Part shown: in pieces, positions 4,065 to 51,895 of the stretch
Position numbering within the stretch: position 1 is the first letter of the stretch
Layout of the letters: each line of letters opens with the position of its first letter
Source of the DNA: Squalus acanthias
Taxonomy: Eukaryota
Direction: 5' to 3'
DNA length: 64,000 bases
Assembly: GCA_030390025.1 (NCBI GenBank)
Contig: JASTWF010000034.1
Span: 1,860,001 to 1,924,000 of the forward strand
Notes under the pieces: generated by a model
The model's database searches: none
What the model was told of the DNA's origin: nothing
What the model saw: the letters and a program-made list of their open reading frames with translations, nothing else
Program-made: the position numbers and the translations under genes

Positions 4065-4973
4065 TTGATATCTTCTCGTCTAATATTCTCTGCACAAGTT
4101 GGAAACAACAGGTGAAAAAGTACAAGGATAAATCTCTTCCATTTGTGTTCAGATACTTTACAACCGCACTTTGCCTGTGGGATAAATTGTCTGATTTCGA
4201 TACTGATAAACGCATTTAGTGGGACATTACCTGGTCGATCATCGCTATTTACTTTAATTCAGAGTCCATTATTTGCAATGTTACTTTGCAAATCTTCCTT
4301 TCAATGAGCTAGAATCTGTGTATTTCAACAAAAATGCAGAACACTCTATCTTCAAAACATAACTGATAGCCCAGTTATCTTTATAACTGCAGTGCACTTG
4401 TATTTATTATCTTAGCATTGTCGTATTACATCCGTACATTTTACATACAATTGCCTGTAATTATTGCATGCCAAGGTTGCAGTTTCTGTATTTTGCTGTT
4501 GCATTCCTTTTCAGTTCTAAATAGAATGGATATTCTGACCAGGAGCAGGAATCCAAGCGGGATCCCCACCACCCCTCGCTAACACAGGGGCACAGAAGCG
4601 AACTGCACCGCTCCAAATGCTGACTGATCCCGGGACACGAAGGCTTCCTGAGAGGGTCTGGTCCTTTGTGTCCCTGGTACCTCGGGCGGTGCTTTTGTGT
4701 GCTGGGCTAAATTTAGATCGATCATTTAATCTCTCCTTGATCAAACATCTGTTACTTTCATATTGTATTTATTCCCATTTCAGTTATTGATTCCACAATG
4801 TATTCCCGATTATTCTTACAATAAGCCCTGTATTCAGCTCCACAGGTAATAGGATTAGATTATATCATTGAATGTCGCTCGTGAGTTGCAGATTTCACCC
4901 CGAATTCCATCAAACTGCTGCTTTTGCTCCCAGCCTGATGAATAATTTCCCTGTTTATTTCCCTTCCTCACAG

Positions 4974-5875
4974 TGAACTTAGTGACGATTGTGATCCTGT
5001 CTCGGGGAAAGTGCGGTCTCTCCAAATGTGTCACTCGCTACCTGGTGTCCATGGCAGCGGCGGATCTACTGGTCGTTATCGTCGACCTGATATTGAGGCA
5101 GATTCCCATTGTTTATGAGGAACAGTTTATTTTCGTGCGGTCGATCCCCGTGTGTAATATCCACGCCGTCCTGCTGTTCGCAGCCACAGACTGTTCTGTC
5201 TGGTTCACCGTCACTTTCACCTTTGATCGATTTGTGGCCATTTGTTGCCAGAAGCTGAAAACTAAATATTGCACCGAGAAAACGGTGGCTGTGGTTCTGG
5301 GAACAGTGACTGTGCTGAGCGGTTTAAAGAACATCACCTGGTATTTTATGTTCAGAGGTCAGTATTGGTTTGGGAACGTCCCCTGGTTTTGTGAGGTCAC
5401 AGACGATGTTCGGCATTCACGGGTCTGGGGAACAATCGAGCTCCTTCATTATATTCTCACCCCGTGTGTCCCATTTGTGGTGATTCTGCTGCTCAATGCT
5501 GTCACCGTCAGACACATTTTAGTGGCCAGCAGAGCCCGCAGGAGACTCCGGGGTCCCAGCAGTGGGGAGAGTCCCAGAGACCCAGAGATGGAGAGCCGCA
5601 GGAAATCCATCATTTTACTGCTTGTTATCTCCGGCAATTTCATCCTGTTATGGGCAGTGTTTATGGTGTATTCTATATGGAGCCGGATATGGTGGTTGGG
5701 GTATCGGTCTGTATTTCTATCTGTTTATGTAATGGAACTGGGATTCATGCTGCAGTTGCTGAGTTGCTGCACAAACACTGGGATTTACGCCGTGACTCAG
5801 ACTAAGTTTAGACAGCAGTTGAACAATGTGGGGAAATATCCCTTTACTCTGATTGTAAAATTCATTAAAGGATAA
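4974..5875 (+). CDS. GPR139-like: Terminal coding exon of a class A GPCR of the GPR139/GPR142-like family; the first exon was not located
   Basis: A polypyrimidine tract and CAG acceptor (4971-4973) precede an open frame of ~300 aa. It contains 'NLVTIVILSRGKCGLSKC', 'MAAADLLV', 'SVWFTVTFTFDRFVAICC', 'PEMESRRKS', 'CCTNTGIY' and hydrophobic TM segments, and stops at 5873-5875. Confidence 0.92.
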
Positions 5876-22900: not shown

Positions 22901-24600
22901 ATAATGGGAAAGGGGAATTGGCAGAGACACTGAACAAATATTTTGCATCGCTCTTCACTTTAGAAGACACTCACAACATCCCAATAATGGATAATCAAGG
23001 GACCAAAGGGAGTGGAGAACTAAGGACAATCACCATCACTAAGGAAACAGTACTTGGTAAAATAATGGGACTAAAAGACGACAAGTCCCCTGGAACAGAT
23101 GGCCTGCATCCCAGGGTCTTAAAAGAAGTGGCTGCAGAGATACTGGATGCATTGGTTGCAATATCCCAAAATTCCCTGGACTCTGGAGAGGTCCCAGCGG
23201 ATTGGAAAACCGCTAATGTAACACCGCTATTTAAGAAAGTAGGGAGAAAGAAAGTAGGAATCTATAGACCAGTTACCCTAACATCTGTCGTTGGGAAAAT
23301 GCTGGAGTTCTTCATTAAGGAAGCAGTAGCAGGGCATTTAGAAAAATATACTGCAGTCAAAGTTGCTAGAGTTCTTTGAGGATGTAACAAGCAGGGTGGA
23401 CAAGGGTGAACCAGTATTTGGATTTCCAGAAGGCATTCGTTAAGGTGCCACATAAAAGGTTACTGCAAAAGATAAGAGCTCACGGAGTTGGGGGTAATAT
23501 ATTAGCATGGCTAGAGAATTGGCTAACTAACAGAAACCAGAGATTCGGGATAAATGGGTAATTTCTGGTTTGCAAACGGTAACTAGTGGGGTGCCACAAG
23601 GATCGGTGCTGGGGCCCCAACTATTTACAATCTACATTAATGTCTTGGATGAAGGGATCGAGTGTAATGTAGCCAAGTTTGCAGATGATACAAAGATGAG
23701 TGGAAAAACAAGTTGTGCAGAGGACTCAATGAATCTGCAAAGGGATATAGACAGGCTAGGTGAGTGGGCAAACATTTGGCAGATGGAGTATAATGTGGGA
23801 AAGTGCGAGGTTATCCACTTCGGCAGGAAAAATAAAAAAACAAACTATTATTTAAATGAAGAGAGTTTACAAAATGCTACAGTTCAGAGGGACCTGGGGG
23901 TGCTTGTGCATGAAACACAAAAAGTTTGCATGCAGCTAGAGCAAGTAATCAAAAAGGCAAATGGAATGTTGGCGTTTATTTCAAGGGGGTTGGAGTATAA
24001 AAGCAGGGAAGTCCTGCTACAACTGTACAAGGTATTGGTGAGACCACACCTTGAGTACTGCGTACAGTTTTAGTCTCCTTATGCAAGGAAGGATATACTT
24101 GCATTGGAGGCAGTTCAGAGACGATTAACTAGGTCAATTCCAGAGATGAGGGGGTTGACTTATGAGGAAAGGTTGAGCAGGCTGGCCCTATACTGATTGG
24201 AATTTAGAAGAATGAGATGTGATCTTATCGAAACATATATTATACTGAGGGGCTCGACAGGTTAGATGCAGAGAGAATGTTTCCCCTCATGGGGAAACCT
24301 GGAACTCGGGGCACAGTCTCAGAATAAAAGGTCGCCCATTTAGAACTGAGATGAGGAGGAATTTCTTCTCTCAGAAGCTCGTAAATCTGTGCAATTCTCT
24401 GCCCAAGAGAGCTGTGGAGGCTGGGTCACTAAATACATTTAAAGTGAAGACAGACAAATTATTGCAAGATAAGGGAGTGAAGGGTTATGGGGAGCGGGCT
24501 GGGAAGTGGCTTTGAGCCCAGATCAGCCATGATATTATTGAATGGCGGAGCAGGCTCGAGGGGCCAAGTGGCCTATTCCTGCTCCTATTTCTTATGTTTT
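19983..24600 (+). mobile_element. Full-length decayed CR1 LINE: tandem-repeat 5' UTR, ORF1 (Zn finger/coiled coil/SGNH esterase, ~20624-21579), ORF2 (APE endonuclease + RT, ~21760-24510)
   Basis: ORF1 has 'HICSKC..LRVDELESELQTLR', 'VVIGDSIVR', 'VHVGTND' and 'DGLHLN'. ORF2 has 'LYLNA', 'GGGVAL', 'VYRPP', 'MGDFN', 'SDH', '[10 protein letters not shown]' and 'KFADD'. TTCTTATG tail; several stops and frameshifts. Confidence 0.95.
19985..20445 (+). repeat. ~43-47-bp CpG-containing tandem repeat forming the CR1 5' UTR
   Basis: Repeated GAGCGAGAGAGTCAAAACCCGGGAGAGTTCAAA units directly upstream of ORF1. Confidence 0.85.
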
Positions 24601-34250: not shown

Positions 34251-36274
34251 CTGTTTCTTTCTCCACAGATGCTGCCTGACCTGCTGAGCAATGTTCCCTG
34301 TAAGCTGTGTGAGTGGGCGGCGATCTGTAAGGTCCCACGCACTGAAATTCACAGGCGGCACAGTGAGCTGGAGCGGGCGGAGTGTCCCAATACCCAATGA
34401 CCGGGTATCCTCACAGAGCCGTTTGTGAACTCACAGAGCCAATCCCAATTGCAACAACATTTGCTGAGATACAGAGCCCTGGCACCCGGCGAGCGTTGTC
34501 TCGAGATTCATTCAGTCCCTTTTCCATGGAGACGCGCGTAGTCCGTTCCGGGTGACTGAGCGGCGGCCGCACTTTGGAACAACACAGGTGGAGGTGCAGC
34601 GCGTATACAATGGTACAAGGGCCGCTGGAAGGAGGCGAAAGCAAACATTTTTTAGCCCCTCGGTGAAACAAAGATATGAGAATTTGATTTTTTGTTAATT
34701 CAGAAAATTGTTTAAAGCCGGAAATAGATATGGGAAAGTGATGTTGAATGTTTTGTGGTAAGTTCCAGTTCAATTTTGCCAGGGCTCGTCCCCTTTCTGA
34801 AATAGTTTATCAGGGTTATTTAAATCATGTTGCGAGAGGGGTGAAAAAGTTTGTGCCCCCGTTTGTACCTCAGAGTCTGAGAGACGGAGGGAACGGCAGC
34901 AGAAAAACAGGAAACAACATCTCCAGAAACTGATCGCAACTCATCGCCAAGGCTGGGGAGAGATAACCTCACCGCCTTCTTAGGAAGTTTAACCACTATA
35001 TTCACTTTCTGATTTGAGCTCCGTTTGGAACTAGATTTGTTTTATTATATTTTGTCGTATGTTTAACGACAGTATTGAAGGGGGAAAGAGAAACTTGGAG
35101 CAACTTCTTTTGTCAAAGCTGCAACGAGACTTGAAAGAATTTAAAGATTTTTAATGAACTTGTCACACAAAATGAGTGTTAAAAACACTTTTTCCCCCTA
35201 GGTTTCGAATATGATTTCGGAAGAGACTGAAGCAAAAGTCAATTTCCCCCTCATCTAAACAAGTTTCAGCCACGTCTTGAAGTCCAGACGCTTTTAAAGA
35301 GGTTCTGAAATGCTTAAAATGTTTTAAATTTGAAATTTCTCAAGATCTGATTTTGAGTGATCGATGAAGTGATTAGCTTTACACACACATGCAACCATGG
35401 TGTTGAGGAGGGGGAGGCAAGGGGATGATTTGTAGGAGTTAAATATTACTTTTTAATGACTTTTTAAAAATATACCATTTAGGCATTTAGGAAGAGAACC
35501 AAAAAAGGGGAAAAACACAAACCATATTATTTTATCTGTCGTTCTATAGTCCGAACAAATCGCAGGAATAATGTAAATATGGATTTGCTGTTCAATATTT
35601 AGTGCCGTGTTAATAGAAACAAGAGTTATGTAATGATGTATAAAAATTGCAGGAAACTACTTCAGAAGAAACCACTCTTTGTTTATTGAGAAAGACACAG
35701 AACATACTTTGATTAAACTGATAAATTACAATTCGATTTGGTTTGAATGTTTGAAATAGAAGATTAAACATTGACAGTACAATGAAGTTTGATTCCTGCT
35801 TTTAATTGCGAAGTACCTAAAATAATTCAACAATTTTCGTGATAAGAGCAGGGATTAATATTGTGGAGAATGTTTGAGAGAAAAACACTTGAAGCAAAAT
35901 TGGTAAATTATAAATCTTTACGTCAACATATGAGTAAACATTTCCAAGTTAGTCTGGCTGGTTCTCCTGTCCAGGAAGAAAGACACATTCTGTTAAATCA
36001 CAGCTTTTCCTGCGTTTTGTTTCTAATTCAGTGACGCAATATTTGTATGTGTTTTTCTACACTTGTGAATATGTGCTGCATTTCTGACATGTTAAATGGA
36101 TGGTGTGCTGGTTCAAGAAGACCACGTTTATTAATGGAAATGATTGAAGTTGAAAATACGGATACACATTTTGTTCAGTTCTTTTTAATACTGCGAATTA
36201 AAGAACTACAGCACTTTATATTTGTTGATTGTCTGGTTGCATTGTGATTAATATTCTATTAACTTACGTGGACG

Positions 36275-37110
36275 TAATATGTGGAAGAAAATAACGCGGA
36301 GAAATCTGAAGTTATCCACTTTGGTAGGAAAAATAGAACAGCAGAGTATCTTTCAAATGGTGCGAGATTGGCAAATGTTGGTGTTCAGAGGGATTTGGGT
36401 GTCCTTGTAGAAAAATCACGGAACGTTAACCTACAGGTACAGCAAGCAATTAGGAAAGCAAATTATATGTTGGCCTTCATTAGAAGAGGATTTGAGTATA
36501 AAAGTAAAGACATCTTATTGCAATTATATCGGGCCCTGGTGAGACCACGCCTGGTGTATTGAGTACAGTTTTGGTCTCCTTACCTAAGGAGGGATATACT
36601 TGTCAAAGTGGGAGTGCAACAAAGGTTCACCAGACTGGTTCCTGGGATGGGGGGATTGTCCAATGAGGAGAGATTGTGTAGACTATGCCTATATTCTCTA
36701 GAGTTCAAAAGAATGAGAGGAGATCTCATTGAAACATGCAACATTTTTTACAGGGCTTGACAGGATAGATGCAGGGAGGATGTTTCCCCTGGTTGGGGAG
36801 TCTAGAACCAGGGGTCACAGTCTCAGAATAAGGGTTCGGCCATGTAGGACTGAGATGAGGAGAAATTTCTTCACTCAGTGGGTGGTGAATCTTTGGAATT
36901 CTCTAGCTCAGAGGGCTGTGGAGACTCAGTCGTTGAGTATAATCAAGACAGAGTTCGATAGATTTTTGAATATTGAGGGAATCAAGGGAAATGGGGATAG
37001 TGCGGGAATGTGGAGATGAGGTACAAGATTAGCTGTGATCATATTGAATGGCGGAGCAGGCTCGAAGGGTCAAATGGCCTACTCCTGCTCCTATTTCTTA
37101 TGTTCTTATG
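36275..37110 (+). mobile_element. CR1 3' fragment (inverted paralog of 13157-13985)
   Basis: ORF2 C-terminal motifs and a TTCTTATG tail. Confidence 0.9.
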
Positions 37111-37554
37111 TGCTTAAAGCTCCCTCAATACTGTCCGATCAAACAATTCCAGGCAGTCGCACAAAAGCAAAATACTGCGGATGCTGGAAATCTGAAGTAA
37201 AACAGAAAATGCTCGAAATACTGAGCAGGTCAGGAGCATCTGTGGAGAGAAGAACAGAGTTAAGGTTTCAGGTCATAGACATTTCATTGGAACAGGCAGG
37301 TACACTTGGATTAGATACAGAGTAATGCTCCACTCACCTCATTTAACACTCTGATATACCCCACGCCATTCACTTTAACAAAGTGATATACCCCTCAGTT
37401 TAATCCTCTCTTACATATCCCAAACCTCTCACTGTAACAGACCGATATACCCCGCTCACCTCACCTTAATACTCTGATATACTCGACACCCCTCAATGTA
37501 ACACTCTGACATAACCCACACCCCTCACTGTAACACTCTGATATAACCCGCACC

Positions 37555-38320
37555 TGTAGGATAGAGTGTATTTGAATGATTTAGTAAACATTTTTGTCTA
37601 ACTATAATATGTGAAATTTTCTGTTAAAAGCCTTAAAGCCTGTATAAAATGGCGAATGGCTGAGAGAGAAGCAGGATGGGAAATTGTGCTAACCTGACTG
37701 AAACTCGCTCTGTTTGCAATTACTGAAGTAATGGAATGTAATGCTAAGTTGATGGAGACTATCAGGGAGGTGGTATTTAGTAATGTGATAGAAAAGAGAT
37801 AAGAGTTGGAGAAGAGAGAGAGATAAGTGAAGCACCTCTCAGTGATAACTACTATAAAATGGACAAATTGTTTGGACAACATCTTGGGAAATGGTTTTTG
37901 GAAAGTGAATATCTAAAGTTAAAAGGGCCCTTTGATATGCACAAAGCGAGTCCGAGTGGGATCAACAAGGTCATAAAACATGTATTGGTGTTGGATAGCT
38001 GTTTGCAGTCACGTAGGAAGAGGGAAAAAAGGTGAATAAAGATACGGATTTTGAACACTGAAGGCAGCGCGAACCAGAGGTGAAGGGGCTTCAGTCGAGA
38101 GAACACAGCAAGAGAAGGAAGAGACCGCGCCACAGTCGCTCGGAAGGAACGCCGAGGCTCAAACGAACAAGACTGTGACTATCTCCTTGTTAAGTATTAA
38201 CTTCTTTGTACTGGATGTTTAATGCTTAATAAACCTGGTTTACTGATACACAATGTACCTGTACAAAGAGTGGTTTGTGTAGTCACGGACAAATAATTAT
38301 AAGAGCTTTTGGAAGCTACA
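37555..38320 (+). repeat. 5' LTR
   Basis: TGTAGG...GCTACA, colinear with 46920-47690; AATAAA at ~38228. Confidence 0.95.
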
Positions 38321-38323
38321 ATT

Positions 38324-38341
38324 TGGCGTCCAACGTGAGGC
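38324..38341 (+). promoter_or_regulatory. Primer-binding site, tRNA-Lys(1,2)-like
   Basis: TGGCGTCCAACGTGAGGC lies 3 nt after the LTR and matches TGGCGCCCAACGTGGGGC at 16 of 18 positions. Confidence 0.85.
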
Positions 38342-38557
38342 TGTGAGTATTAACTGAAACCAGGTCTATTGTGCATAAAGCAGCCGTTCGCATTTTCCCT
38401 TGGATTTTCGTCTGACCAACGAGGATCCTCGTGGAAAGTTAGGTTTTCTAACAGATAGTGTCTCTTTAACGCACAAAAGAATGCCGAGTGAGTATTTTCT
38501 TGTAGATTATAAAGCGAAGTTTATTTAGAAGTGCGATGAGGCACAGTTACAAATGTT

Positions 38558-39880
38558 AGTAGAATGGGCCCTTGCAATCAGAATCAGGGAAATTTATAAT
38601 GGGGAACAAAGAAATGGTTAACCAATTAAATAAATACTTTGGTTCTGTCTTCACAAAGAAAGACACAAATTTCCTCCCAGAGATGTCGGGGAACATAGGC
38701 TCTAATGAGAGGGAGGAACATAGAAACATAGAAACATAGAAGATAGGAGCAGGAGTAGGCCATTCGGCCCCTCTAGCCTGCTCCGCCATTCAATGTGATC
38801 ATGGCTGATCATCCAAATTCAGAACCCTGTCCCTGCTTTCTCCCCATATCCCTTGATCCCTTTAGCCTTATGAAATATATCTAACTGCTTCTTGAATATA
38901 TTTAATGAATTGGCCTCTACTGCCTTCTGTGGTCGAGAATTCCACAGGTTCACCACTCTGGGTGAAGAAATTCCTCCTCATTTCTGTCCTAAATGTCTTA
39001 CCCCTTATCCATAGACAGTGACCCCAGGTTCTGGACTCCCCGAACATCGGGATCATCCTTCCTGCATCTAGTCTGTCCAGTCCTTTCAGAATTTTATAAG
39101 TTTCAATGAGATCCCCTCTCATTCTGCTAAACTCCAGCGAGTATTAGCCCAATCGACACAATTTCTCTTCATACGTCATTCCTGCCATCCCAGGTATCAG
39201 CCTGGTGAATCTTCGCTGAACTCCTTCCATGGCAAGAACCTCGTTCCTCAGATAAGGCGACCAAAACTGCACACAATACTCAAGATGTGGTCTCACCAAG
39301 GCCCTGTAAAACTGGAGCAAGACATCCTTGTTCCTGTACTCAAACCCTCTCGCTACGAAGGCCAACACACCATTTGCCTTCTTAACCGCCTTCTGCACCT
39401 GCATGCTTACCTTCAGCGACTGGTGCACAAGGACAACCAGGTCTCGTTGCACTTCCCCTTCTCCCAATCTATTGCCATTCAGATAATAAGCTGCCTTCCA
39501 GTGTTTGACACCAAAGTGGATAACCTCGCATTTATCCGCGTCATATTGCATCTGCCATGCTTCTGCCCAATCACCCAACCTGTCCAAATCATCCTGGAGT
39601 TTCTCGGCATCCTCCTCACAGCACACACGCCACCCAACTTTGTGTCATCTGCAAACTTGGAGATATTACATCTAGTTCCCTTGTCTAGATCATTTTATAT
39701 ATATTGTGAATAGCTGGGGTCCAAGGACCGATCCCTGTGGTACCCCACTAGTCACTGCCTGCCACTTGGAAAAATACCCGTTTATTCCAACTCTTTGCTT
39801 TCTGTCTGCCAACCAGTTATCTATCCAAGTCAATACCTTGCCCCCAATCCCATGTGCCTTAACTTTACACGCTAATTTCA
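38558..39880 (-). mobile_element. CR1 insertions in the provirus leader/5' gag: a plus-strand fragment (~38558-38718) and a minus-strand 5'-truncated CR1 (~38719-39880)
   Basis: RT motifs [10 protein letters not shown] and KFADD, with a (TTTCTATG)n tail at ~38719-38740. Confidence 0.9.
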
Positions 39881-41060
39881 TTCCCGTGAGGTCCCCATCT
39901 CATATGCCACCATCGACCTGGCTGAAAGACCACCAGACTATGATAATAAAAATATAATCGAACCCACAGCGGACGAACTTGCGCCCGTTAGAGCTTCGGT
40001 TAATGTCCTGACTCGAACCCAAGTGATTCCTAATGCACGACCAGCACTAGTAGCTGACGGTGACCCGGGACAAGCAGCACAACCAGTGGCACCTCCAGGG
40101 ATACTTTGGGCAGTTACTCATGGAAGGTCCCAGCCCCTAAACTATGCAGAACTACAGGCATGTGTCCAACAATTCGGACCAGTTAACCCACAAACATGCC
40201 CCAGAGAGTTAAGGCAACGCATTCCGGAAGTACCATCCTAATTTTGAAGACAATGACTTGAAGAAGGTTGTACTGTCTGCCCTGACTCCGGACATACGGA
40301 CTAGTCTCCCCTTTTTGGCCTTTAATGTGGGGAACACACTGAATGACTTAATCACATATATACAGACAGCTTTAGGCTTGGATACTATTGATTTGGTCCA
40401 GAAATTAAACCAAACCCAACAAGGGCCACATGAGATCCCTGCTGCTTTCGGAGATCGGTTGTACACTATTTATAAAATGACGCAAGCACGCCCCAATGCT
40501 GATGCATTGAACTGGACGGAATAAGCGGCATTTAAGAAAATATGTTTAAAGAATATTCAGACCTCACTGCGAGCAACTTTAGGGCGCACGGTCAGCCACA
40601 ACTTGCAATGGACAGCCCTTTTTAGAGACACTACTTCTGCATGGGCCTATGATAACATTCATGTCCAGGCATCAATCACAGAAACGCCAGTACATTTATT
40701 GAGGGACCCCAGGCTTCTCTAGTATCAAACCCCCGTAGACAATCGTTCATGTGTTACAACTGCGGTAAGATGGGTCACTTTGTGAAAGATAGCCGAAGTC
40801 CTAGACAAACAGGCTCGGGAGGTGGGCGGAATAACAATAATTACCCGAGATGTGGTCCGTCCCGTTTACCTCATCCAGTGGATAGCAAGCTGGACGCTAT
40901 GGAATCACTAATTGAAAGAATGTCATGCATGATGTAAACACTTACAGGAACCCAGTTGTCGGCGAGTCCTGTGGCCCCAACTATGAGTTGGAATTCGACT
41001 CCCCCTATGAGCTCATTATTCCCGCCCCCACCACTGCAACAACCCAATGGCCCACAATGA
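39881..41060 (+). pseudogene. gag: gag remnant (capsid-like region, CCHC zinc knuckle, Pro-rich C-terminus)
   Basis: 'QQGPHEIPAAFGDRL' is MHR-like. 'CYNCGKMGHFVKDS' is a knuckle with the last Cys lost. The frame continues past a premature TAA to TGA at 41058-41060. Confidence 0.85.
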
Positions 41061-44000
41061 CGGGATCCGGCCCACTGGCCGGGTCTGAAGTGGGGTTCAG
41101 ACGAGACGGCCATGGTCGACCAGTTGTCTCAGCTTTGCTGCCTGGGGGCTGACAGCAGACTATGCTAATAGACACTGGGTCATCTGTTACAATCTTGCAT
41201 TCCCCAGACCCGGAACGCCAACTGGATATAGGCAAAAGTAGCTTCGTCATAACGGGAGTCACCGGGGCACAAGCACCCGTATATCCAGGGGATGCACTTA
41301 ACATTTCCCCCGAGGAATTCCCCGTAACAATTACCGATCCATTGTACATGTGTATGACAAACAGAATGGGGATACTTGGGAATGATACCCTAAGGGAAAT
41401 GACAGCCATTGTAGATTACAATCAGGATTGTTTATGGGTTGAGTCTAAACCGGGAGATGTAGTTCAAATCTCAAATGCTCACTCGGTGTTTGCTATAAAG
41501 AAGCCTGAGCAGATAGCACTGCCGCCACATTCTCTGCCTGCTGTTAACTACTTAGTGACCAAACATGGAGCAGCCGTTGCTAAATCTAAACACGACTGTG
41601 GGAGGATGGAAAGGGAGACGCGAATTAATGGGCCACCCCATCGCGCATGTAAACAATATCCGATTCCCCGAGAAAGTTTTCCGTATTTGCGAACAGTCAT
41701 TGCCTCATTGGAAGAACAGGGAGTACTGCGCAAGGGTTATTTTACTACCAATTCCCCTGCATGGTCAGTTAGGAAGCCGGATGAATCTTGAGGCTTACTA
41801 TTGATTACCGTGCCTTAAATAAAGCTTCCCACGTCAAAGCCCGACTGTTAGTCAAGCCCCTTCGCTACTACATCCATACCCCCCAAGGCCACTGTCTTCT
41901 CCACCTTAGACATAGCGAATGGTTTTTGGAGTATTCCAGTTGCTCAGGAGGACCAGTACAAATTTGCTTTCACGTTTGAAGGGCAGGGCTACACATTTAC
42001 GTGACTACCGCAAGGGTTTCATAACTCGCCATCGATCTTTCATCAGTATATGGCACGAGCAGTTAAAGACTTTTCTAAACCTTCAGCCCTTCTACAGGAT
42101 GTTGATGATCTACTTTTGGCTACTGAAACAATGGAAGAGCACCTAGAACTCTGAGATGAGCTGATAGGACTAGTACAAAAGGCAGGGCTGAAAATAAATC
42201 CAAACAAGGTTCAGCTGGCAAAAGATGAGGTTACCTTTCTGGGAGTAAAATTTTCAGCGACTGGCCTTAGTCCGGACCACAAGAAGATAGAGACTCTTCA
42301 GCGACTCCCGTTACCAGTTTCAAAGACTGCATTGCGATCCTTTTTAGGTTTGGTCGGATACCAGCGAAATTGTATTCCGAACTTTGCAGACTTGGCTAAA
42401 CCTTTGTATGATCTTTTACAGGGAGATGCGGAAGAGATACAACCCATATGGGGAGATCACCAGACTGCTGCGGTTAGTGCTTTGAAACAAGCCACGATAC
42501 AGGCAACTGCTCTCATCTCCCCGGATCACGGTCAGCCCTTTCACCCCTACCAGCCTAACTACCGTTTTGAGTCAGAAACAGGCAATCAGTGAGACACTAC
42601 GCACTATCGCGTATGCCTCACGTATACTACGAGGGGTGGAAAGTACATTCTCAGCGTGTGAACGTCATCTGTTGGCCACATTTTGGGCAGTCAATCATTT
42701 CACCTACATTACCGGACTGCAGAAGGTCATCTTGCATTCACCACACACGCCCCTTAATCTGCTGTTAAAACCAAGTGAGACCAAGGTATCCTCTCAGCGA
42801 ATAAGTAAATGGACACTAGAATTCTTACACTGTGACCTGAACATTACGCCTCAACGAACCACGCTGTGACCACTTATGCTCGCCTATGAGGGAAGCCCAC
42901 ACCAGTGTCCATTACCAGTGCTAGATATGGAACCAAATCCAGTAAAGGCTAACGCCATACCCGGAGCTCGAAATGTGTACCTTGACGGGTCATCATACTG
43001 TGTAGATGGCCATCCTAGAACTGGATGTGCCCTTATTGATATCGACGCTCCCGATTGGTCAGAGGGATTTCACGTTCCCGTCCACTCCTCACAACAGGCA
43101 GAACTGATTGCAGTAATTCTAGCCGTACATTACACGGCTATGGATGAAACAAATATCTGGTCCGACAGCAGTTACGTTTGTAATACAGTTATGGCTCTTC
43201 CCCTCTATAATACCAATGAGTTTTGCTCATCAGAACATAAATCTTTATTACATTCTGGTCTCCTCCGTAAGCTATGGAAAGTGCTCCAGGAACGAGTCGC
43301 CCCTTGTCACGTGTGTAAGGTAGCAGCCCATCAGAAAGATTCATCCCCCCATTCTCGAGGTAACCAAATGGCCGATCGCTTTGCTAAGCAGGCGGCCGAG
43401 AACGGAAAGTTACTACCTTGGTGGGTATGAATAATACTCAGACACCCGTAGTGGGGGCGGTGACTAAGACTAAAACCATTGATCTTTTGGCCCTACAGGA
43501 TTCATATGCTCCTTATGCACAGGTACTAGCCTGGCATCAACAGGGATGCCCGGTACCAGCACCCACCCTATGGGCAGACTCCACTGTAATGCAACAAGAT
43601 GTAGATAAAAACCCTCCCCTACTAATGATCAGGAATAAAGAGGGTGACCTAGTAGTTTGTATTCCTCCTCAGTTAAAGGAAGAAATTCTAGCTCTCTTTC
43701 ATTCATTTCACGGGAGCAGTTTTCACAACACTGCAAGAAATGTTACAGATAAAACATAAATTGCACCTTGCGCACCATCCACAATCATCAGGGATTGTGG
43801 AGAGGGGAAATCGAACTTGAAAGACAATGTTGCAGAAGTTGTGTACAGATCACCCCACTCAGTGGACTGACATGTTGCCTTTATGTCTAATGGTAATACG
43901 ATCTACCCCACACGGGACTACGAGGGTAAGTCCATATGAGGCTATGACTGGGAGGCAAATGCGGATACCAGGACATGCAATATATGGAACTAACACACCA

Positions 44001-44327
44001 TTAAAACTACAACCATGTAGCCAAAAATGGTTACAAACCTTGATAGATCATATGGACGAGGTGAGCAAGCTGGTGGCCATTAACATAGGCAAATCGCGTG
44101 AACAAATCAAGCGATATTATAAGAGAGTAAAACCATTTGAGTATGATGTTGGAGACCGAGTAATGTCACACAATTTATCTCCAAAAAATCACTCATTCGA
44201 GATAAAATGGACCACAGTAGATAAATTAAATCCAGCTGTGTATCTACTGAATGTCCCATATGGTCCGAAGGGAGAACCTAAACTGAAATGGCTCCATATC
44301 AATCAGATGAAAACTGTTAAGAATTAA
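41061..44327 (+). pseudogene. pol: pro-pol remnant: aspartic protease, RT, Ty3-like RNase H/tether, retroviral RNase H, integrase with internal deletion
   Basis: Protease 'MLIDTGSS'. RT 'NSPAWSVRKPD..RLTIDYR.LN', 'LDIANGFWSI', 'LPQGFHNSP' and 'QDVDDLLL'. RNase H 'IAYASR..CERHLLA' and 'YLDGSS..QQAEL..SDSSY..GNQMAD'. Integrase 'HPQSSGIVERGN' and 'SPYEAMTGR'. Confidence 0.95.
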
Positions 44328-44360
44328 GATGTTACATTTTGATTTACCCACAGGTTAAAG

Positions 44361-46877
44361 ATGTGGCTCTGTAGTCTGATACTGATAATTGGATGTGCAG
44401 TGAGCTCTCCGGAGGTAACAAAATCTTTTGACATTACCATTAACATCTGTACACTGGACGAAGGAGGCGAATGCGTCCTACTCCACATCTATGGAACGGA
44501 AACTCGAATTGTTGGCGGACATAAATAATCAAAGAACTATCATGGACCATCCGAGACGTATGAGGAGGATGTTCCAGTTTGGATCAGAAATAGTACAAAA
44601 GATAATATAACAACACCATACGTAACGGGTTGTGGTACATTACAAGAAAAGGTGTATAATTAGGAAATAAAAGAAGGATATGGTGTGTGTATCAGGTGCG
44701 GGATAAGGTACAGGAAAGGCCCAAATGTGTGGAAATTCCTGAAGAAAAATAATGGAATCTGGGAACAGGTACAAGAATCCGATCAGGGAGCAGTAGCTTC
44801 GGAAAGTAAGGGATATATACAATTATGCTGGCCTCGGTGGTGGAAGAAAAATACCGGCCAGTATTCTTGTATTGGGTCGAATATTATCATGGGCTTTAAA
44901 AATCAGGATGATGATTGGCCTCCTATTCCCGAATATGATGTAAAGATTACCTCAGCAGAATATGAGATTCCCAGAGACGATATAGAGATCACCGCGGCAG
45001 AAAATAAACCCTTTATGATAACCTTTATACGTTGGGGAAATTATAGGGATTTTGGGAATAAAGATAACAGCATAATATAATTCAAAAATGCGATAACTGG
45101 TTGTGTAAGGGAAGATGGGTATGTCTATAGTGTTAAGCTCACACCCTATGCGAAAGTAAGTCATTCAGAACCAGGAGAGGGTGTACCCGAGGAACAATGT
45201 CCCCAACTAACAGCGGGACCTGGGAACGGTCTTGTAATTATACCCACCTATAAAGCAGTGTATCATCAAGTAATACCGGAAGTGGCCCCTGTTATTCTAA
45301 ATTTAACAGAACTAATACTACCAAAGTGGTGCCCTGACAAAACAGCACAACTAACTCAGAGAATGCTGCAGCAAGTTTTTAATCAGTACTGGGAAAAGGC
45401 GACCTTATCTATAAGTATAGAGAAAACAGAACGGACCTTCCGTCACGAGTTTAGTACCACTAAAGAGAGCAGCCAGGGAAAGAGTAGACAGAAAGAGGAT
45501 TGATAAACGATGGACTCACAGGTTTCAAGACAGTAACATCGGTAATTAACTCAATGGACTCCGCAGATTTACAAATACAATTACAAACGGTGAGGGAAAA
45601 GTTGAAGGAGATACTTAGTAGAGAAAAAAACATAGTAAGGGAGGAGCTAAGGGATGATCAGGTAATGACCATACACCTGCGGGACATCATACATGAAATA
45701 GAGGATCATGGCAAAAGAATTAATGATCTGATTAGAGAAAACAAATGCCTCTGATCAAGCAGCCCATAATGACGTATGCGTTATGTACGGGAATTGGCTG
45801 ATTGAACAAACTAGGGAAAAACTTCAGACCATCAATCAGGGACGTCTCCCCACTTGGGTCACTAATAAACACTAATCAGGGCTATCCAATTATTACGATG
45901 GTGCAGAACTATGTAAGATCAGGAGTTTGATTAGAATACACCCTGTTAAACGCGAATGCCACGAGGTAGGGAGTCAAAAGTTGATGGGACTATTACTACA
46001 AATTCCTAGTCTAATGAATCGATCTGGACACAACCCCTGATTTAGGATAGAAAATATAGGAGTAGTACAAGGGAATACTATTACCCGATTTCTCACGGCA
46101 CCACAATGGTTAGTACAATTAGGAAAACTAACATGGATTGAACCAAACCTCCAGGGATGCAATACAAATGAGGATGCCTTTGTCGGTCCATACCGTTTAT
46201 ATGAGCATTCAAAGGATACCTGTGGATATGGTTGGAATGAAGAAAGGTTAAACTGTACCATGGAAGTGACAGGCCCCTCAGATTTAAGAACTAGAACAGC
46301 CTACGTACGAGAAGGGAGGTATTGTTTTACCACTTTAGAAAACTCCTATAGTCATGGAAAAATTGAATGGTCAATAACCCCAGGGACCTACTGTATTACT
46401 ACTAGAAAGACTACAGTAATAGGAGGAAGAATTCTCCTTGTAATAGCCTCACATGGCCAACAAGTACTACAAACAAATTTAAAAATAAATCTAGAAGATT
46501 ATGTCACAAGATTCGGATATGACATCCCTGAATTACCTGAAGCATTAGCCGAGCTAATAAGTCAAGTGAGCACCTCTCAACGTCATTATTATACGTTGGT
46601 GCAAGGAAATAAAGACATTGCTGAGGAAATTCCAGACATCGAGACTCAGACCCACTGGTGGGATATAGGAACAAATATGGACATTTCCCCTTGGATTATA
46701 ATAATTTCCCATGTACTGTTCATAGCCCAACTCATAGTACTAATATGCTTACTGCTGTACAACTGCTACCTGAAACACCTGATGTCTAATACCCAATCAT
46801 GTTTAAATATGATCACAACCCAAAATACCTTAGAGTTACACAAACGAAAGAGAACTAATCCATATGTAAGAGTTTAG
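44361..46877 (+). pseudogene. env: env remnant (~840 codons): signal peptide, SU-like region, furin site, long heptad- and Cys-rich ectodomain, TM anchor
   Basis: A splice acceptor CACAG (44349-44353) precedes ATG 'MWLCSLILIIGCAVSS'. RQKR/GLINDGL is restored by a 1-nt indel at ~45495, and the TM is 'WIIIISHVLFIAQLIVLICLLLY'. Confidence 0.88.
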
Positions 46878-46919
46878 TTTTGAGGGGTCGGCAAATGCAT
46901 CGCCCTCAATGTAGGGATT

Positions 46920-47690
46920 TGTAGGGTAGGGTGTATTTGTATGATTTAGTAAACATTTTTGTGCAACTATAATATGTGTAATTTTATGTTAAAAGCCTAA
47001 AAGCCTGTATAAAATGGCGAATGGCTGAGAGAGATGCAGGATGGGAAATTATGCCAAACCTGACCGAAACTCGCTCTGTTCTCAATGACTGAAGTAATGG
47101 AATGGAATGCTAAGTTTATGGAGACTGTCAGTAACGTGGTATTCAGTAATATGATGGAAAAGAGATAAGAGAAGTGAAGAGAGAGATAAATTGAAGGCAC
47201 CCCTCAGTGATACCAGTATAAAATGGACAGACTCTTTCGACAAAATTTTGGGAAATGCTCTTTGGAAAGAGAACATCTAAAGATAAAGGGCACTTTGATA
47301 TGCACAAAGCGAGACCTAGTGGGATCAACAACGTCATACAACATGTACCAGGTGTCGGATAGCTGATTGCAGTCACGTAGGCAAAGGAAGGGAAAGTGTA
47401 TAAAGATACAGATATTGAACACTGAAGGCAGCACGAAACAAGAATCAGAGTTGAAGGAGCTTCAGTCAAGAGAAAACAGCAAGAGAATAAAGAGACCGCA
47501 CTACAGTCACTCAGAAGGAACGCCGAGGCTCAAACGAACAAGACTGTGACTATCTCCTTGCTAAGTATGACTTATTTGTACTGGGTGTTCAATGCTTAAT
47601 AAAGCTGTTTTACATATACACAATATACCTGCACCCAGAGTGGTTTGAGTAGTCAAGGACAAATTATTATAAGAGCTTTTGGAAGCTACA
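46920..47690 (+). repeat. 3' LTR
   Basis: TGTAGG...GCTACA, preceded by a TTGAGGG..CCCTCAA hairpin and a degenerate purine tract. Confidence 0.95.
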
Positions 47691-48950
47691 CACCACAGGC
47701 CGGGAATGGAGTGTGAGTTCCCCCTTCTTTATGTATGGTTCAGTACCACACTGAATGAGAACTGACACACCACAGGCCAGGAATGGAGCCTGGGCTCTCC
47801 CTTCTCTGTGTGTGTGGCTCAGTCATTCACCGACTTTGAACAACAGACATACCACAGGCCAGGAATGTAGCCTGAACCCTTGCTTCTCTGTGTGTGGTCC
47901 TCAGTACCTCTTTGACTGTGAACAACTGACATACCACAGGCCGGGAATGGAGCCTGAGCACCCCCTTCTCAGTGTGTGGGGCTCAGTAACTCACTGACTG
48001 TGGGCAACTGACATACCACAGGCTGGGAATGGAGCCTGGGGACACCCTTCCGTGAGTGTGACTCAGTACCTTACCGACTGTGAACAACGGACATTCCACG
48101 GGAACTGGAATAGTGCCTGAGCCCTTCCTTCTCTGTGTGTGGGCCTCATTACCATATCGAATGAGAACAACTGACACACTACAGGCCTGGTATGGAGCTC
48201 GGCCCTTCCTTCTCTGTGTTTGGGCCTCATTACCATACCGAATGAGAACAACTGACACACCACAGACCGGGAATGGAGCCTGACCCCTTCCTTCTCTGTG
48301 TGAGGGCCTCAGTACTTCACCGAGTGTGAACAAATGACACACCACGGACCGGGAATGTAGCCTGTCCCCTTCCTTCTCTGTGTGTTGGCCTCAGTACCTC
48401 ACCGACTGTGAACAACTAACATACCACAGGTCGGGAATTTAGCCTGGGCCCTTCCTTCTCTGTGTGTGGGTGTCAATACCTCAGCGACTGTAAACAATTA
48501 ACACACCACAGGCCGGGAATGGAGCCTGAGTCCGTTCTTCTCTTTGTGTGGGCCTCAGTACCTCAACGACAGTGAACAACTGACACACCACAGGCCGGGT
48601 ATGGAGCCTGGGCCATTCAATCTCTGTGTGTGGGGCTCAGTACCTCACCAAATTGAGAACAACTGACATAACATGGGCCGGGAATGGAGCCTGAGCCCTT
48701 CCTTCTCTGTGAGTGGTCCTCAGTACCTCACCGAATGAGAACAACTGACATACCATGATCCGGGAATGGAGCCTGAGCCCTTCCTTCTCTTTGTGTGGTC
48801 CTCAGTACCTCACCGAATGTGGACAATTAACAAAGCACTGGCCGGGAATGGAGCCTGTGCCCTCCATTCTCTGTGTGTGGGCCTCAGTTCCTCACCGACT
48901 GTGAAGAAATAACATACCACAGCCCGGGAATGGAGATTGTGCGCTCCCTA
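47691..48950 (+). repeat. ~82-bp satellite (CACCACAGGCCGGGAATGGAGCCTGAGCCCTTCCTTCTCTGTGTGTGGGCCTCAGTACCTCACCGACTGTGAACAACTGACA)
   Basis: Direct periodicity. The array continues at 51895-53530, 56412-58460 and 61500-63320. Confidence 0.95.
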
Positions 48951-48954
48951 CTTT

Positions 48955-51895
48955 CAGTCTGGAAGGCAGAGCAAATATGTAACGGCACAAGGGAGTATGG
49001 CAAGGCTAAATGGCATTTATTTTAGTGCAAGGAGTCTTACGTGTAAGGCAGATGAATTGAAGGTGTTGATGAACACATGGGAGGATGATATTGTTGCTAT
49101 CACAGAGATATGGTTGAGGGAGGGGCAGGACTGGCAGCTCAATATACCAGGGTATAGAATCTTCAGGCGAGACAGAGGGAGGTGTAAAAGAGGAGGGGTG
49201 TCGCAATATTAATCAAGGAGTCAATTACTGCAGTAAGAAGGGATCATATCTTCGCAGGTTCCTCTAATGAGACCATAAGGGTAGAACTTAAAAACAAAAA
49301 GGGGGCAAACACTTTGCTGGGAGTGTACTATAGGCCCCCAAACAGTCAGAGGGAGATAGAAGAACAGATATGTAGGCAAATCTCAGAGAAATGTAGAAAT
49401 AATAGTGTAATAATAGTCGGGGATTTTATCTTCCCCAATATTAACTGGGATTGTCAGAGTGTGAAAGGCTTAGACGGTGCGGAATTCTTAAAGTGCATCC
49501 AGGAGAGCTTTTTAAGAAAGCATGTAGAAAGTCCTACAAGAGAGGGGGCGGTACTGGACCTAATTCTAGGGAATGTAGCCGGGCAAGTGGTAGAAATGTC
49601 ATTAGGAGAGCATTTTGGTGACAGTGACCATAATTCGGTAAGATTTAAGGTCGTCATGGAAAAGGACAAAGATGGACTGGAAATACTGGTTCTAAATTGG
49701 GGGAAGGCCGATTTTAATATGACAGGCAGGATCTGGCCAATGTGGACTGAGTAAAGCTACTTGTAGGAAAATCCACATCGGAGCAGTAGGAGTCATTCAG
49801 AAAGGAAATAGAGAGAATACAGCGCCAACATGTTCCCGTAAAGGTCAAGGGTGGGACCAGCAAGTCCAGGAAACCCTGGATGTCAAGGGATAAAGAAGAA
49901 TGGATTAGGAAAGAAAGGGAGGCTTTTGGCAGATACAAAGTACTAAAAACAGTGGAAGCCCTAGAGGAGTAAAGAAAGTCCATGGGGGTACTTAAAGAAC
50001 AAATTAGGAGAGCGAAGAGGGGGCATGAAAAAACACTGGCGGGAAAAAATAAAGAAAAATCCCAAGGTTTTATTTTAAGTATATTAAGGGCAAGAGGATA
50101 ACCAGGGAAAGAGTAGGGCCCATTAGGGACCAAAGTGGCAATCTGTGTGTATAACCGAAAGATGTAGGTGAGGTTTAAAATTAATATTTTGCATCTCTGT
50201 TCACTATGGAGAAGGACGATGTAGGCATAGAAATCAGGCAGCGGGATTGTGGTATACTTGAACAAATTAGCACTGAGAGGGAGGCGGTGCTGGTGGTTTT
50301 AGCGGGCTATAAATGTGGATAAATTCCCAGGCCCAGACGAGATGTATCCCAGGCTGCAGTGTGAGGCAAGGGAGGAGATTGCAGGGGCTCTGACATAAAT
50401 TTTCAGAACCTCTCTGGCCACAGGGGAGGTGCCAGATGACTGGAGAACAGCTAACGTAGTACCATTATTCAAGAAGGATAGTAATGATAAACCAGGGAAT
50501 GACAGGCCAGTGAGCCAAACATCAGTGGTAGGGAAATTATTGGAAAACATTCTGAGGGACAGAATTAGTCTCCACTTGGAGAGGCAAGAATTAATCAAGG
50601 ATAGTCAGCATGGCTTTGTCAGGGGGAGATCATGTCTAAACAATTTGATTGAATTTTTCGAGGGGGTGACTAGGTGTATGGATGAGGGCAGTGCAGTTGA
50701 AATGTCTACATGGATTTCCGTAAGGCTTTTGCCAAAGTCCTGCATGGGAGACTGAACAAGAATGTAACTGCCCATGGGATCCAGGGCAATTTGGCACATT
50801 GGATCCAAAATTGGCTTAGTGGCAGGAGGCACAGTGTGATGGTCGAAGGTAGTTTTTGTGACTAGAAGCCTGTCTCCAGTGGTGTACCGCAGGGATCGGT
50901 GCTGGGTCCCTTGCTGTTTGTAGTGTAAATTACTGATTTAGATATGAATGTAGGAGGTATGATCAGTAAGTTCGCAGATGACACGAAAATTGGTGAAGTA
51001 GTAAATAGCGAGGAGGGAAGCCTCAGGCTACAGGACGATATAGACGGGTTGGTCAGATGGGCAGAACAGTGGCAAATGGAATTTCACCCTGAAAAATGTG
51101 AGGTGATGCATTTTTGGAGGACTAACATGCCAAGGGAATAAACAATGAATGGTATGACCCTAGGAAGGGCAGATAATCAGAGGGACCTTGGTGTGCATGC
51201 ACATAGATACATGAAGGCAGCAGGAGAGGTAGATAATGTGTTTAAAAAGGCATATGGGATACTTGCCTTCATTAGCCGAGGCATAGAAGATAAGAGCAGA
51301 GAGGTTATGATGGAGCTGTACAAAACGCTAGTTAGGCCACAGCTGGAATATTGTGTGCAGTTCTGGTCACCACACTATAGGAAGGATGTGATTGCATTGG
51401 AGAGGGTGCAGAGGAGATTCACCAGGATGTTACCTGGGCTGGAGCGTTTCAGCTATGAAGAGAGACTGGACAGGCTGGGGTTGTTTTTCTTAGACCATAG
51501 AAGGCTGAGGGGGGACCTGATTGAGGTGTACAAAATTATGAGGGGCATAGATAGGGTAGATAGAAAGGACATTTTCCCCTTAGTAAAGGGGTCACTAACC
51601 AGGGGGCATAGTTTCAAGGTAAGTGGCAGGAGGTTTAGAGGGGATTTGAGGAAACCCTTTTTCACCCAGAGGGTGGATGGAATCTGGAACTCACTGCCTG
51701 AAAGGGTGGTAGAGGCAGCAACACTCACAAAATTCAAGAAGCATTTAGATGAGCACTTGAAACGCCATAGCAGACAAGGCTACGGACCAAGTGCTGGAAA
51801 ATGAGATTATAATAGATAGGGCTTGATGGCCGGCGCAGACATGATGGGCCGAAGGGCCTCTTTCTGTGCTGTATATCTCTATGACTCTATGACTA
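48955..51895 (+). mobile_element. CR1 LINE (whole ORF2, decayed), copy 1 of a tandem triplication
   Basis: Endonuclease motifs (ITE.WL, YYRPP, GDF, DSDH) and RT motifs ([17 protein letters not shown]), with a (CTATGACT)n tail. Confidence 0.95.

Follow-up and report, generated by a model that had tools for sequence, protein, structure and literature searches.

We analyzed a stretch of 64,000 nucleotides (nt) from the genome of the shark Squalus acanthias (GenBank assembly GCA_030390025.1, contig JASTWF010000034.1, positions 1,860,001 to 1,924,000 of the forward strand; hereafter referred to as the window), which harbors an endogenous retrovirus (ERV) with two long terminal repeats (LTRs) and remnants of gag, pro-pol and env at positions 37555–47690. 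Taken together, our results make it probable that this element, a dead provirus, represents a large and diverse ERV family of old age that belongs to a lineage of sharks and frogs, that encodes an envelope protein (Env) resembling the fusion (F) proteins of paramyxo- and pneumoviruses, and that is not a lokiretrovirus (Loki). A reading of the DNA made earlier from the sequence alone (the original prediction) had proposed a loki-like lineage, possibly undescribed in the host group.

Natural open frames from other copies in the genome were used for the domain, model and profile analyses. For Env, an AlphaFold model was made of a 748-residue env frame that is naturally open; based on a 51-row alignment, it had a mean predicted local distance difference test score (pLDDT) of 56.7, with values of ~80–96 over residues 283–357 and 470–705; the N-terminal head modelled alone reached a mean pLDDT of 42.9. 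Foldseek comparison of the model with the PDB gave 232 matches at E ≤ 0.001, and the 50 shown are all paramyxo- or pneumovirus F proteins, aligned over 454–544 columns, with human parainfluenza virus 3 F as the best match (6.8e-10). VIA-align superimposed the model on Langya virus F with a Z-score of 12.5 (321 residues aligned; Z 9.9–12.5 over the 50 entries shown) and on prefusion foamy virus Env (PDB entry 8rm0) with a Z-score of 10.2 (root-mean-square deviation [rmsd] 5.9, 299 residues aligned). Residues 293–706 of the model align to F residues 26–434 at 8–15% sequence identity, and the furin site of the relatives (RQKR or RRRR) falls at the meeting point of F2 and F1. The model suggests that Env is composed of a ~290-residue head and a complete F-like class I fusion unit in F order and fold. 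All elements of F-type class I fusion proteins ('subclass Ib' in PMC11468914) are predicted in it, namely an F2-like strand/helix, the furin site, the fusion peptide, a heptad repeat, a β-rich region, a second heptad repeat and the anchor. Domain order, the fold over ~300–320 residues and the furin-site position would thus be common to this Env and the F proteins of Paramyxoviridae and Pneumoviridae, from which the shark protein differs in its additional N-terminal head of ~290 residues and in being encoded by a retrovirus. In this respect, the F-related Env that the original prediction cited for lokiretroviruses agrees with the predicted fold.

Among the predicted viral structures of BFVD, the model matched the Envs of walleye epidermal hyperplasia virus (WEHV) 1 (1.9e-10) and walleye dermal sarcoma virus (WDSV; 1.3e-6) and feline foamy virus gp130 (1.4e-4), and, in addition, a large number of F-like glycoproteins, among them mononegaviral and baculoviral ones. 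The top BFVD match was A0A384ZVF2, a protein of 928 residues (E 1.1e-15, 902 columns) that lies nearer than any named virus and, judged by predicted structure, may represent the nearest exogenous relative.

At the sequence level, the env gene of the window begins with an ATG at 44361, 33 nt past the pol stop, and comprises ~840 codons, ~459 of which follow the furin site, close to the ~460 residues estimated before. It is interrupted by in-frame stops and by frameshifts at ~45494/45497, where the furin site is destroyed, and at ~45735–45745. Of the splice acceptor claimed for env, an acceptor-like motif 9 nt before the ATG stands, as a motif only; a spliced RNA is the probable template for Env translation. 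The env stop (46877) lies only 42 nt before the 3' LTR (46920), and there are therefore no accessory genes between them. Neither the window nor five natural env frames contained a Pfam match to TLV_coat or another gamma-type Env, in line with the lack of gamma-type hallmarks noted originally. Fusion_gly (PF00523) was likewise not matched at E ≤ 5 in the five natural env frames or at E ≤ 0.1 in eight relatives, and Pfam gave no match to Foamy_virus_ENV or a leader-peptide-type Env in the natural env frames. A word-index search of env against 5.8 billion proteins returned no match, and comparison of an env profile with PDB sequences returned nothing below E 0.16. Among 1.84 billion proteins, a profile built from 11 natural env frames found 44 relatives at E ≤ 0.001; of ten that were looked up, six are from sharks and rays (three from Pristiophorus, one each from Chiloscyllium, Rhinoraja and Mustelus) and two from frogs (Pelodytes and Mantella), and these host groups match those of the Pol relatives.

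As exogenous retrovirus references we used IMG/VR records, labelled by Pfam matches in their gag, env and accessory frames: records with Gag_spuma and Foamy_virus_ENV were labelled foamy, and those with Gag_MA, Gag_p30 and TLV_coat gamma. Further records were one of 12,708 nt with a cyclin-like open reading frame (ORF) and a 1229-codon env, one of 10,688 nt with a 1134-codon env, and two with weak TLV_coat matches. The 12,708-nt record we take to be WDSV or close kin. With its 1229-residue Env, the shark env profile aligned at 95.3% in hhalign (E 2.1e-8, 349 columns), over a region that takes in the furin site and, ahead of it, a Cys-Pro...Gly-Pro motif, and with the Env of the 10,688-nt record at 93.8% (E 1.8e-7). 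The corresponding values were 69% for a single foamy Env and 78% for a foamy Env profile (E 1.8e-5, 135 columns). The Env of the shark family is thus of the same type as that of exogenous epsilonretroviruses, and because this long fusion subunit without gamma hallmarks is also the exogenous epsilonretrovirus type, it is not evidence for Loki. The original argument had been premised on short, gamma-type transmembrane subunits in epsilonretroviruses; exogenous epsilonretroviruses differ from that premise, the 1229-codon env of the WDSV-like record being homologous to the env of the window.

The exogenous epsilonretroviruses (WDSV, WEHV) resemble the shark family further in a CCHC Gag and in a gag-pro-pol arrangement in which a stop is followed by continuation in one frame, which the WDSV-like record shows too, and their very long Envs without gamma hallmarks are homologous to the shark Env by profile and by predicted structure. 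They differ in that the reverse transcriptase (RT) of the shark family lies outside the class I clade holding the WDSV-like record, in their cyclin/accessory ORFs, which the shark family lacks, and in Env length (840 residues in the shark family compared to 1229). PMC9967133 treats the exogenous epsilonretrovirus Env as distinct from the gamma type and as a recent development, and a 2021 preprint, which could not model its surface subunit, kept it outside the beta/gamma classification (bioRxiv 10.1101/2021.11.05.467493). A limited literature search found no publication stating that the epsilonretroviral Env is F-like.

The placement of the family rests on its RT. A protein search yielded RT relatives from Xenopus tropicalis (54% identity), Latimeria (53%) and frogs (43–45%) as well as squirrel monkey foamy virus Pol (30%), and among PDB sequences foamy protease-RT scored 213 bits, compared to 197–200 for the RTs of xenotropic murine leukemia virus-related virus and murine leukemia virus, 148 for Ty3 and at most 62 for human immunodeficiency virus. 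Trees were built from RT plus tether, with reference rows taken from the protein search and from the IMG/VR records, as two quick trees of 62 and 65 rows and a careful tree of 37 rows and 397 columns, the rows of which were drawn from the 65-row tree. The sole class II-like row (P0185) was dropped after the first quick tree (branch length 5.07), and 15 more rows were dropped for the second, namely near-duplicates, four gypsy rows and P0030, for which an identical foamy record was substituted. Loki was represented by P0123 (Zoarces) and P0124, which carry Loki motifs and are, by eye, near-identical over RT to two consensus sequences of the Loki supplement. In the careful tree, retroviruses were separated from gypsy elements (support 100/100), the Loki pair was sister to all remaining retroviruses, including the shark family (100/98), the gamma/epsilon (class I) clade contained the 10,688-nt record and excluded the shark family (98/99), and the shark family grouped with an X. 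tropicalis ERV (100/99); the two quick trees agree with this topology. The RT is thus sister to the X. tropicalis ERV, loosely grouped with ERVs of frogs and the coelacanth in a set that the gamma/epsilon clade excludes, and falls in neither Loki, the gamma/epsilon clade, the exogenous foamy viruses nor gypsy. That the element is a retrovirus rather than a gypsy element, as is also indicated by its second RNase H, and that it lies outside epsilon/gamma ERVs had both been anticipated.

Pfam searches with stop-to-stop fragments of the window detected the zinc knuckle of Gag (zf-CCHC, 1.5e-5), the tether (RT_RNaseH, 3e-15), RNase H (RNase_H, 2e-17) and the tail of RVT_1, and gave weak matches to Gag_p30 (0.005) and RVP (0.006); rve and Env families were not matched among these fragments. 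A natural 828-residue frame covering protease, RT, tether and RNase H, with 85% DNA identity to the window, matched RVT_1 (3e-29), RT_RNaseH_2 (3e-17) and RNase_H (1e-17), and a natural 1105-residue pol frame from a 62%-identical subfamily adds Integrase_H2C2 and rve. The integrase C-terminus of the relatives shows a GPF motif and weak MLVIN_C/SH3 matches. The CCHC Gag, the two RNase H domains and the gypsy-like integrase C-terminus of the original prediction all have their counterparts in these matches. In a natural 294-residue gag frame, the zinc knuckle was the sole detection with Pfam and the PDB, and no capsid match was obtained. In three of three copies examined, gag ends in a TGA and pro-pol follows in the same frame, which in the window shifts a few codons later; judging from this arrangement, readthrough of the stop codon would yield Gag-Pro-Pol, a strategy shared with gamma- and epsilonretroviruses.

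The window copy itself is dead and can carry out none of the steps proposed for the family. By comparison with two other copies, ~390–400 bp of the integrase catalytic core are missing at 43704/43705, and ~635 bp of 5' gag have been replaced, so that both losses recognized at the outset are real; pol has at least five frame changes (near 41789, 41829, 41870, 42544 and 43427) and five in-frame stops. Its RT reads DVDD, compared to YVDD in three of four close copies printed, which fits the decay postulated for this motif.

Aiewsakun and Katzourakis (2017; PMC5512871) reported that foamy-like ERVs (FLERVs) of X. tropicalis cluster strongly with those of Callorhinchus milii, only pol being detectable in both hosts. 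CmiFLERV and XtrFLERV thus share with the present family the pairing of shark and X. tropicalis by RT/Pol and a basal position outside the exogenous genera, and differ in being known from pol only, whereas here gag (with its CCHC motif and TGA context) and an F-like env are present. The shark family most likely belongs to this shark-frog lineage, to which it is matched by description only. It is therefore doubtful, given shark and frog FLERVs published from pol (PMC5512871), that the lineage is undescribed in the host group; what is probably new is the gene content of the family and its F-like, epsilon-type Env. A catshark consensus, ERV-Spuma.0-Sca, is described in PMC10699275 as lacking recognizable Gag domains, and that report may already cover the shark family. 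The elephant shark carries SnRV-like (snakehead retrovirus-like) and epsilon-like lineages (Han 2015, PMC4422223), and retroviruses have been divided into five clades (Xu et al. 2018, PMC6001957).

We weighed three other accounts of the family against this assignment. That it is a lokiretrovirus or loki-like, sister to all other retroviruses and newly found in cartilaginous fish, appears scarcely credible, although several traits point that way. The predicted Env fold is F-like, and the GPF-type integrase C-terminus resembles the text on Loki Pol. Dual RNase H domains are present as well, but they are common to all retroviruses and therefore do not discriminate. The top RT database matches are annotated 'NYNRIN-like' (by annotation only), NYNRIN presumably being CGIN1. 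Wang and Han (2020; PMC7947760) tie the Loki integrase to CGIN1 and relate the Loki Env to paramyxo- and pneumovirus F; Loki and the shark family also have the LTR-gag-pol-env layout and tether plus RNase H in common. However, the Loki pair is sister to the 100/98 clade that contains the shark family. In approximately unbiased (AU) tests, forcing five shark rows to group with Loki cost 45.8 log-likelihood units (p 0.021), and forcing the 15-row shark-frog-coelacanth set to do so cost 26.3 units (p 0.027). The RT motifs of the shark family (LPQGFHNSP, LLQYVDDLLLA) are unlike those of all Loki sequences compared from the supplement (CPFGY..NSPAEF, IYVDDI type), in which three RT words of the shark family had no occurrence. 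The Loki Env is detected by the F0 Pfam model, which does not match the shark Env even at E ≤ 5, and the shark family lacks an smc gene. Finally, in the species table of the lokiretrovirus paper, X. tropicalis and Latimeria are positive, while none of three Orectolobiformes (Chondrichthyes) genomes screened is (PMC7947760). Lokiretrovirus identity, and with it the loki-like lineage originally claimed, was thus rejected for Pol at the level tested, by the 100/98 split and the AU tests; the likeness in Env fold alone is retained.

It is a somewhat unlikely alternative that the family is a true member of the foamy total group, with the CCHC Gag and gag-pol readthrough disappearing afterwards in the foamy viruses. 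Such a position would fit the tRNA-Lys(CUU) primer site (other FLERVs have tRNA-Lys primer sites and most foamy viruses use tRNA-Lys; PMC5512871), the best PDB RT match being foamy protease-RT, the F-like fusion core shared with foamy Env (8RM0, Z 10.2; foamy Env profile, 78%) and the clustering of published shark and frog FLERVs, as of shark and Xenopus here. Yet no supported branch unites the shark family with foamy viruses. Its Gag has a CCHC motif and, in the window and relatives, no Gag_spuma, which was found only in the foamy records. Its gag and pol share one frame across the TGA in a readthrough-type arrangement, whereas these ORFs overlap in the foamy records fetched. A leader-peptide-type Env and a Foamy_virus_ENV match are both absent, the 42 nt between env and LTR leave no room for tas/bet-like genes, and the Env profile matches the epsilon type better than the foamy type. 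The Env architectures also differ: foamy viruses carry the receptor-binding module as an insertion between their subunits (PMC11468914), whereas the shark receptor-binding part is predicted to be N-terminal, residues 286–709 of the model aligning to residues 139–852 of the 8RM0 chain. A mosaic, in which an old 'foamy-like' gag-pol acquired env from an epsilonretrovirus-like virus, or the reverse, would account for an RT outside class I (98/99) in combination with an Env profile nearest to the WDSV-like and 10,688-nt (basal class I) records, and env swapping is frequent among retroviruses (PMC9967133 and established knowledge). We nevertheless regard it as distinctly unlikely: the Pol and Env relatives come from the same hosts, sharks/rays and frogs, and F-like Envs are also found in Loki, as published, and in foamy viruses, so that shared ancestry explains the pattern without a swap.

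Several points weigh against our assignment to a shark-frog lineage with an F-like Env. The Env model has a low mean pLDDT (56.7) and a shallow alignment of 51 sequences, and the head domain is without a model. TM-scores to F are modest (0.34–0.49 by target length) and the rmsd is large, as would be expected for predicted and solved structures if their conformations differ, although this metric is weak all the same. No sequence family detects Env, neither Pfam, with chance-level matches only, nor the PDB profile comparison, and the capsid is supported by the below-cut-off Gag_p30 match (0.005) alone. The careful tree has a polytomy that involves the pair of shark family and X. tropicalis ERV, the remaining ERVs of frogs and the coelacanth, foamy viruses and class I, and in the 65-row quick tree the branching with respect to foamy viruses is likewise a polytomy. 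Both AU p-values are small to a moderate degree only, and the choice of the 15-row group followed inspection of the tree. The trees were built without class II, ERV-L, a named SnRV or the published fish, shark and frog FLERVs, and the X. tropicalis protein in them may differ from XtrFLERV.

If the shark-frog assignment and the F-like Env hold, the shark-frog 'foamy-like' branch, so far defined by pol alone, has copies with an orthoretrovirus-style Gag and gag-pol and an F-type Env, and the Env of the walleye tumor viruses, left outside the beta/gamma scheme, is now linked by sequence profile. Together with Loki and the foamy viruses, four or five deep retroviral branches would then have an F-like Env, which bears on the origin of retroviral env. 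We tentatively raise the possibility, with more doubt than conviction, that an F-like Env is ancestral to Retroviridae and was later replaced, in most ERVs, by the gamma-type Env. Such an Env is seen in Loki (published), in foamy viruses (solved structure), in the shark-frog lineage, in the 10,688-nt record and in exogenous epsilonretroviruses; if the suggestion is true, the WDSV-type Env, called 'recent' in a 2023 review, would be hundreds of millions of years old.

Table 1. Features of the provirus and its immediate borders (positions in the window).
Feature	Position	Strand	Remarks
5' target-site duplication copy, CACC	37551–37554	+	identical four bases after 3' LTR
5' LTR, TG...CA	37555–38320	+	766 bp; U3/R/U5 limits inferred only
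TATA-like box in 5' LTR	37853–37859	+	position hand-counted from sequence
AATAAA in 5' LTR	38035–38040	+	position hand-counted from sequence
Primer binding site, tRNA-Lys(CUU)	38324–38341	+	16 of 18 bases match
Leader	38342–38566	+	homologous to leader in other copies
Foreign DNA replacing ~635 bp of 5' gag	38567–39875	.	1309 bp; from comparison with two other copies
Dispersed repeat of ~1.16 kb inside foreign DNA	38717–39875	.	rest of insert is 38567–38716
gag remnant, several frames	39876–41060	+	capsid-like part; CCHC at ~40752–40790; TGA stop at 41058–41060
pro-pol	41061–44327	+	TAA stop at 44325–44327
Protease	~41159–41407	+	weak RVP
RT active-site motif DVDD	42098–42109	+	read from frame
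Tether	~42552–42824	+	RT_RNaseH
RNase H	~42972–43397	+	RNase_H
Integrase N-terminal remnant	43427–43704	+	core deletion at 43704/43705
Integrase end and C-terminal domain	43705 side of deletion to TAA 44325–44327	+	
Splice-acceptor-like tract ending in CAG	44330–44352	+	pyrimidine tract and CAG/G, 9 nt before env ATG; motif only
env signal peptide and N-terminal head of surface subunit	44361–45236	+	~290 codons; models low-confidence here
env F2-like segment to furin-site remnant	45237–45494	+	mapped from residues 293–385 of modelled relative
env F1-like fusion subunit	45497–46877	+	stop at 46877
Fusion peptide and first heptad repeat	45497–45745	+	shifted frame
env β-rich core	to ~46455	+	
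Second heptad repeat	~46521–46604	+	
Membrane anchor	~46692–46772	+	
3' LTR, TG...CA	46920–47690	+	771 bp
3' target-site duplication copy, CACC	47691–47694	+	same four bases as 5' copy

The ends of the provirus (Table 1) bear out the two LTRs and the tRNA-Lys primer binding site of the original prediction: the LTRs measure 766 and 771 bp, run from TG to CA and are flanked by CACC on both sides, and 16 of the 18 nt of the primer site, which begins three bases past the 5' LTR, match tRNA-Lys(CTT) genes of the same genome. The complement of this site had 249 matches in the genome, and at six of six loci scanned with ARAGORN it was the 3' end (plus CCA) of a tRNA-Lys(ctt) gene. Target duplications of 4 bp were seen in both copies for which both ends are available, as CACC at the provirus of the window and as CTCC at a copy on contig C7. 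The two LTRs are 86.6% identical over 776 aligned columns, with a Kimura two-parameter distance of 0.137. This distance corresponds to ~31 million years at 2.2e-9 substitutions per site each year (the rate adopted in PMC7947760) and to ~311 million years at 2.2e-10 (used in PMC4422223), and because of this spread the LTR date is uninformative.

The C7 copy (L033, position ~3249) has a different primer site, the complement of which was the 3' end of tRNA-Lys(ttt) at one of five scanned loci; at a second, a variant of it was called tRNA-Glu(ttc), and the remaining three matches, without a tRNA, are probably ERV primer sites. Lysine tRNA primers thus vary within one ERV family, the primer being tRNA-Lys(CUU) for the copy in the window and tRNA-Lys(UUU) for the one on C7. 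The tRNA-Lys(CTT) 3'-end pattern also occurs in dense, partly paired clusters on contigs C21 (~6.7–11.0 Mb) and C26 (~39.4–44.3 Mb), a distribution that suggests large tandem arrays of tRNA genes. On its 3' side, the provirus is bordered by an 82-bp satellite (47688–48935; 15.3 copies, 80% matches), which begins in the final bases of the 3' LTR, so that the 3' flank consists of satellite from the very first position; the 5' flank looks unlike this satellite.

A first look at the 3.7-Gb assembly gave 1140 LTR candidates, 9371 with the env C-terminus and 13,913 with the RT thumb, the env and RT protein counts taking in related families. Env identities among genomic copies range from 99% down to 36%, and with so many candidates the window copy is therefore one member of a large, old radiation. 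Natural env frames reach 759 residues, and the whole ~840-codon frame was open in none of the 14 env loci fetched.

Seven other loci carry LTRs that share 97% identity with the 5' LTR. All seven have 1.5 kb of upstream flank in common with the window (96.7–97.6% identity), and five of the seven also show the uninterrupted junction with the foreign insert. These loci would thus be either segmental duplicates of the dead provirus, not fresh insertions, or products of assembly redundancy. Upstream flank, provirus and insert (36022–39820) recur together in at least seven more copies (L002–L008) at 96–98% identity, several of them on small unplaced contigs. That the locus is a chimera of two proviruses, with an LTR pair that does not derive from one integration, could be argued from the LTR identities, which are only 86.6% within the pair but 97% between the 5' LTR and LTRs elsewhere, and from the 5' LTR and leader being 88% identical to the C7 copy, compared to 92–93% over the remaining element, the break in identity coinciding with the foreign insert. 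Nonetheless, a chimera is most unlikely: CACC is the same at both ends, which argues for one original integration, and the 97% matches are segmental duplicates with the same flanks and insert, not independent elements, which is why the 3' LTR looks less close to the 5' LTR than 'other' LTRs do.

Assuming a single dead provirus of this shark-frog family, we propose that reverse transcription in the family is primed by tRNA-Lys, with a 4-bp target duplication made on integration. Its CCHC Gag ends at the TGA and would be extended to Gag-Pro-Pol by readthrough, and its pol has the tether and RNase H customary for retroviruses, together with an integrase whose C-terminal domain is of the GPF type. 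An Env of ~840 residues, presumably translated from spliced RNA, would bind its receptor via the N-terminal head and, after furin cleavage, act as a trimeric class I fusion protein. The window copy has lost 5' gag and the integrase core, has decayed, and was probably multiplied later with its flanks by segmental duplication.

Further observations concern repeats within the family. The ~1.16-kb dispersed repeat had 11,549 first-look candidates, the dispersed copies listed being ~96% identical, and its frames gave no Pfam match. It was inserted independently in at least three copies of the ERV family (window, 38717–39875; L026, 3037–4197; L030, in the protease). In two near-identical sister copies (C2671:4902886-4903907 and C3259:132212-133160), a ~39-bp piece of the 3' LTR (LTR positions 174–223), single in the window copy, is expanded to ~25 tandem units.

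Elsewhere in the window, an open frame of 309 codons (4946–5875, + strand) encodes a rhodopsin-family receptor (7tm_1, 2e-19), with nearest clusters named 'probable G-protein coupled receptor 139', and is probably a host gene or retrocopy; as a marker of the host it points to a chordate, no more narrowly. Fragments of non-LTR retrotransposons lie at 2277–3986 (− strand; 569 residues, RVT_1), 21712–24073 (+ strand; endonuclease and RVT_1) and 49188–49754 (+ strand; endonuclease).

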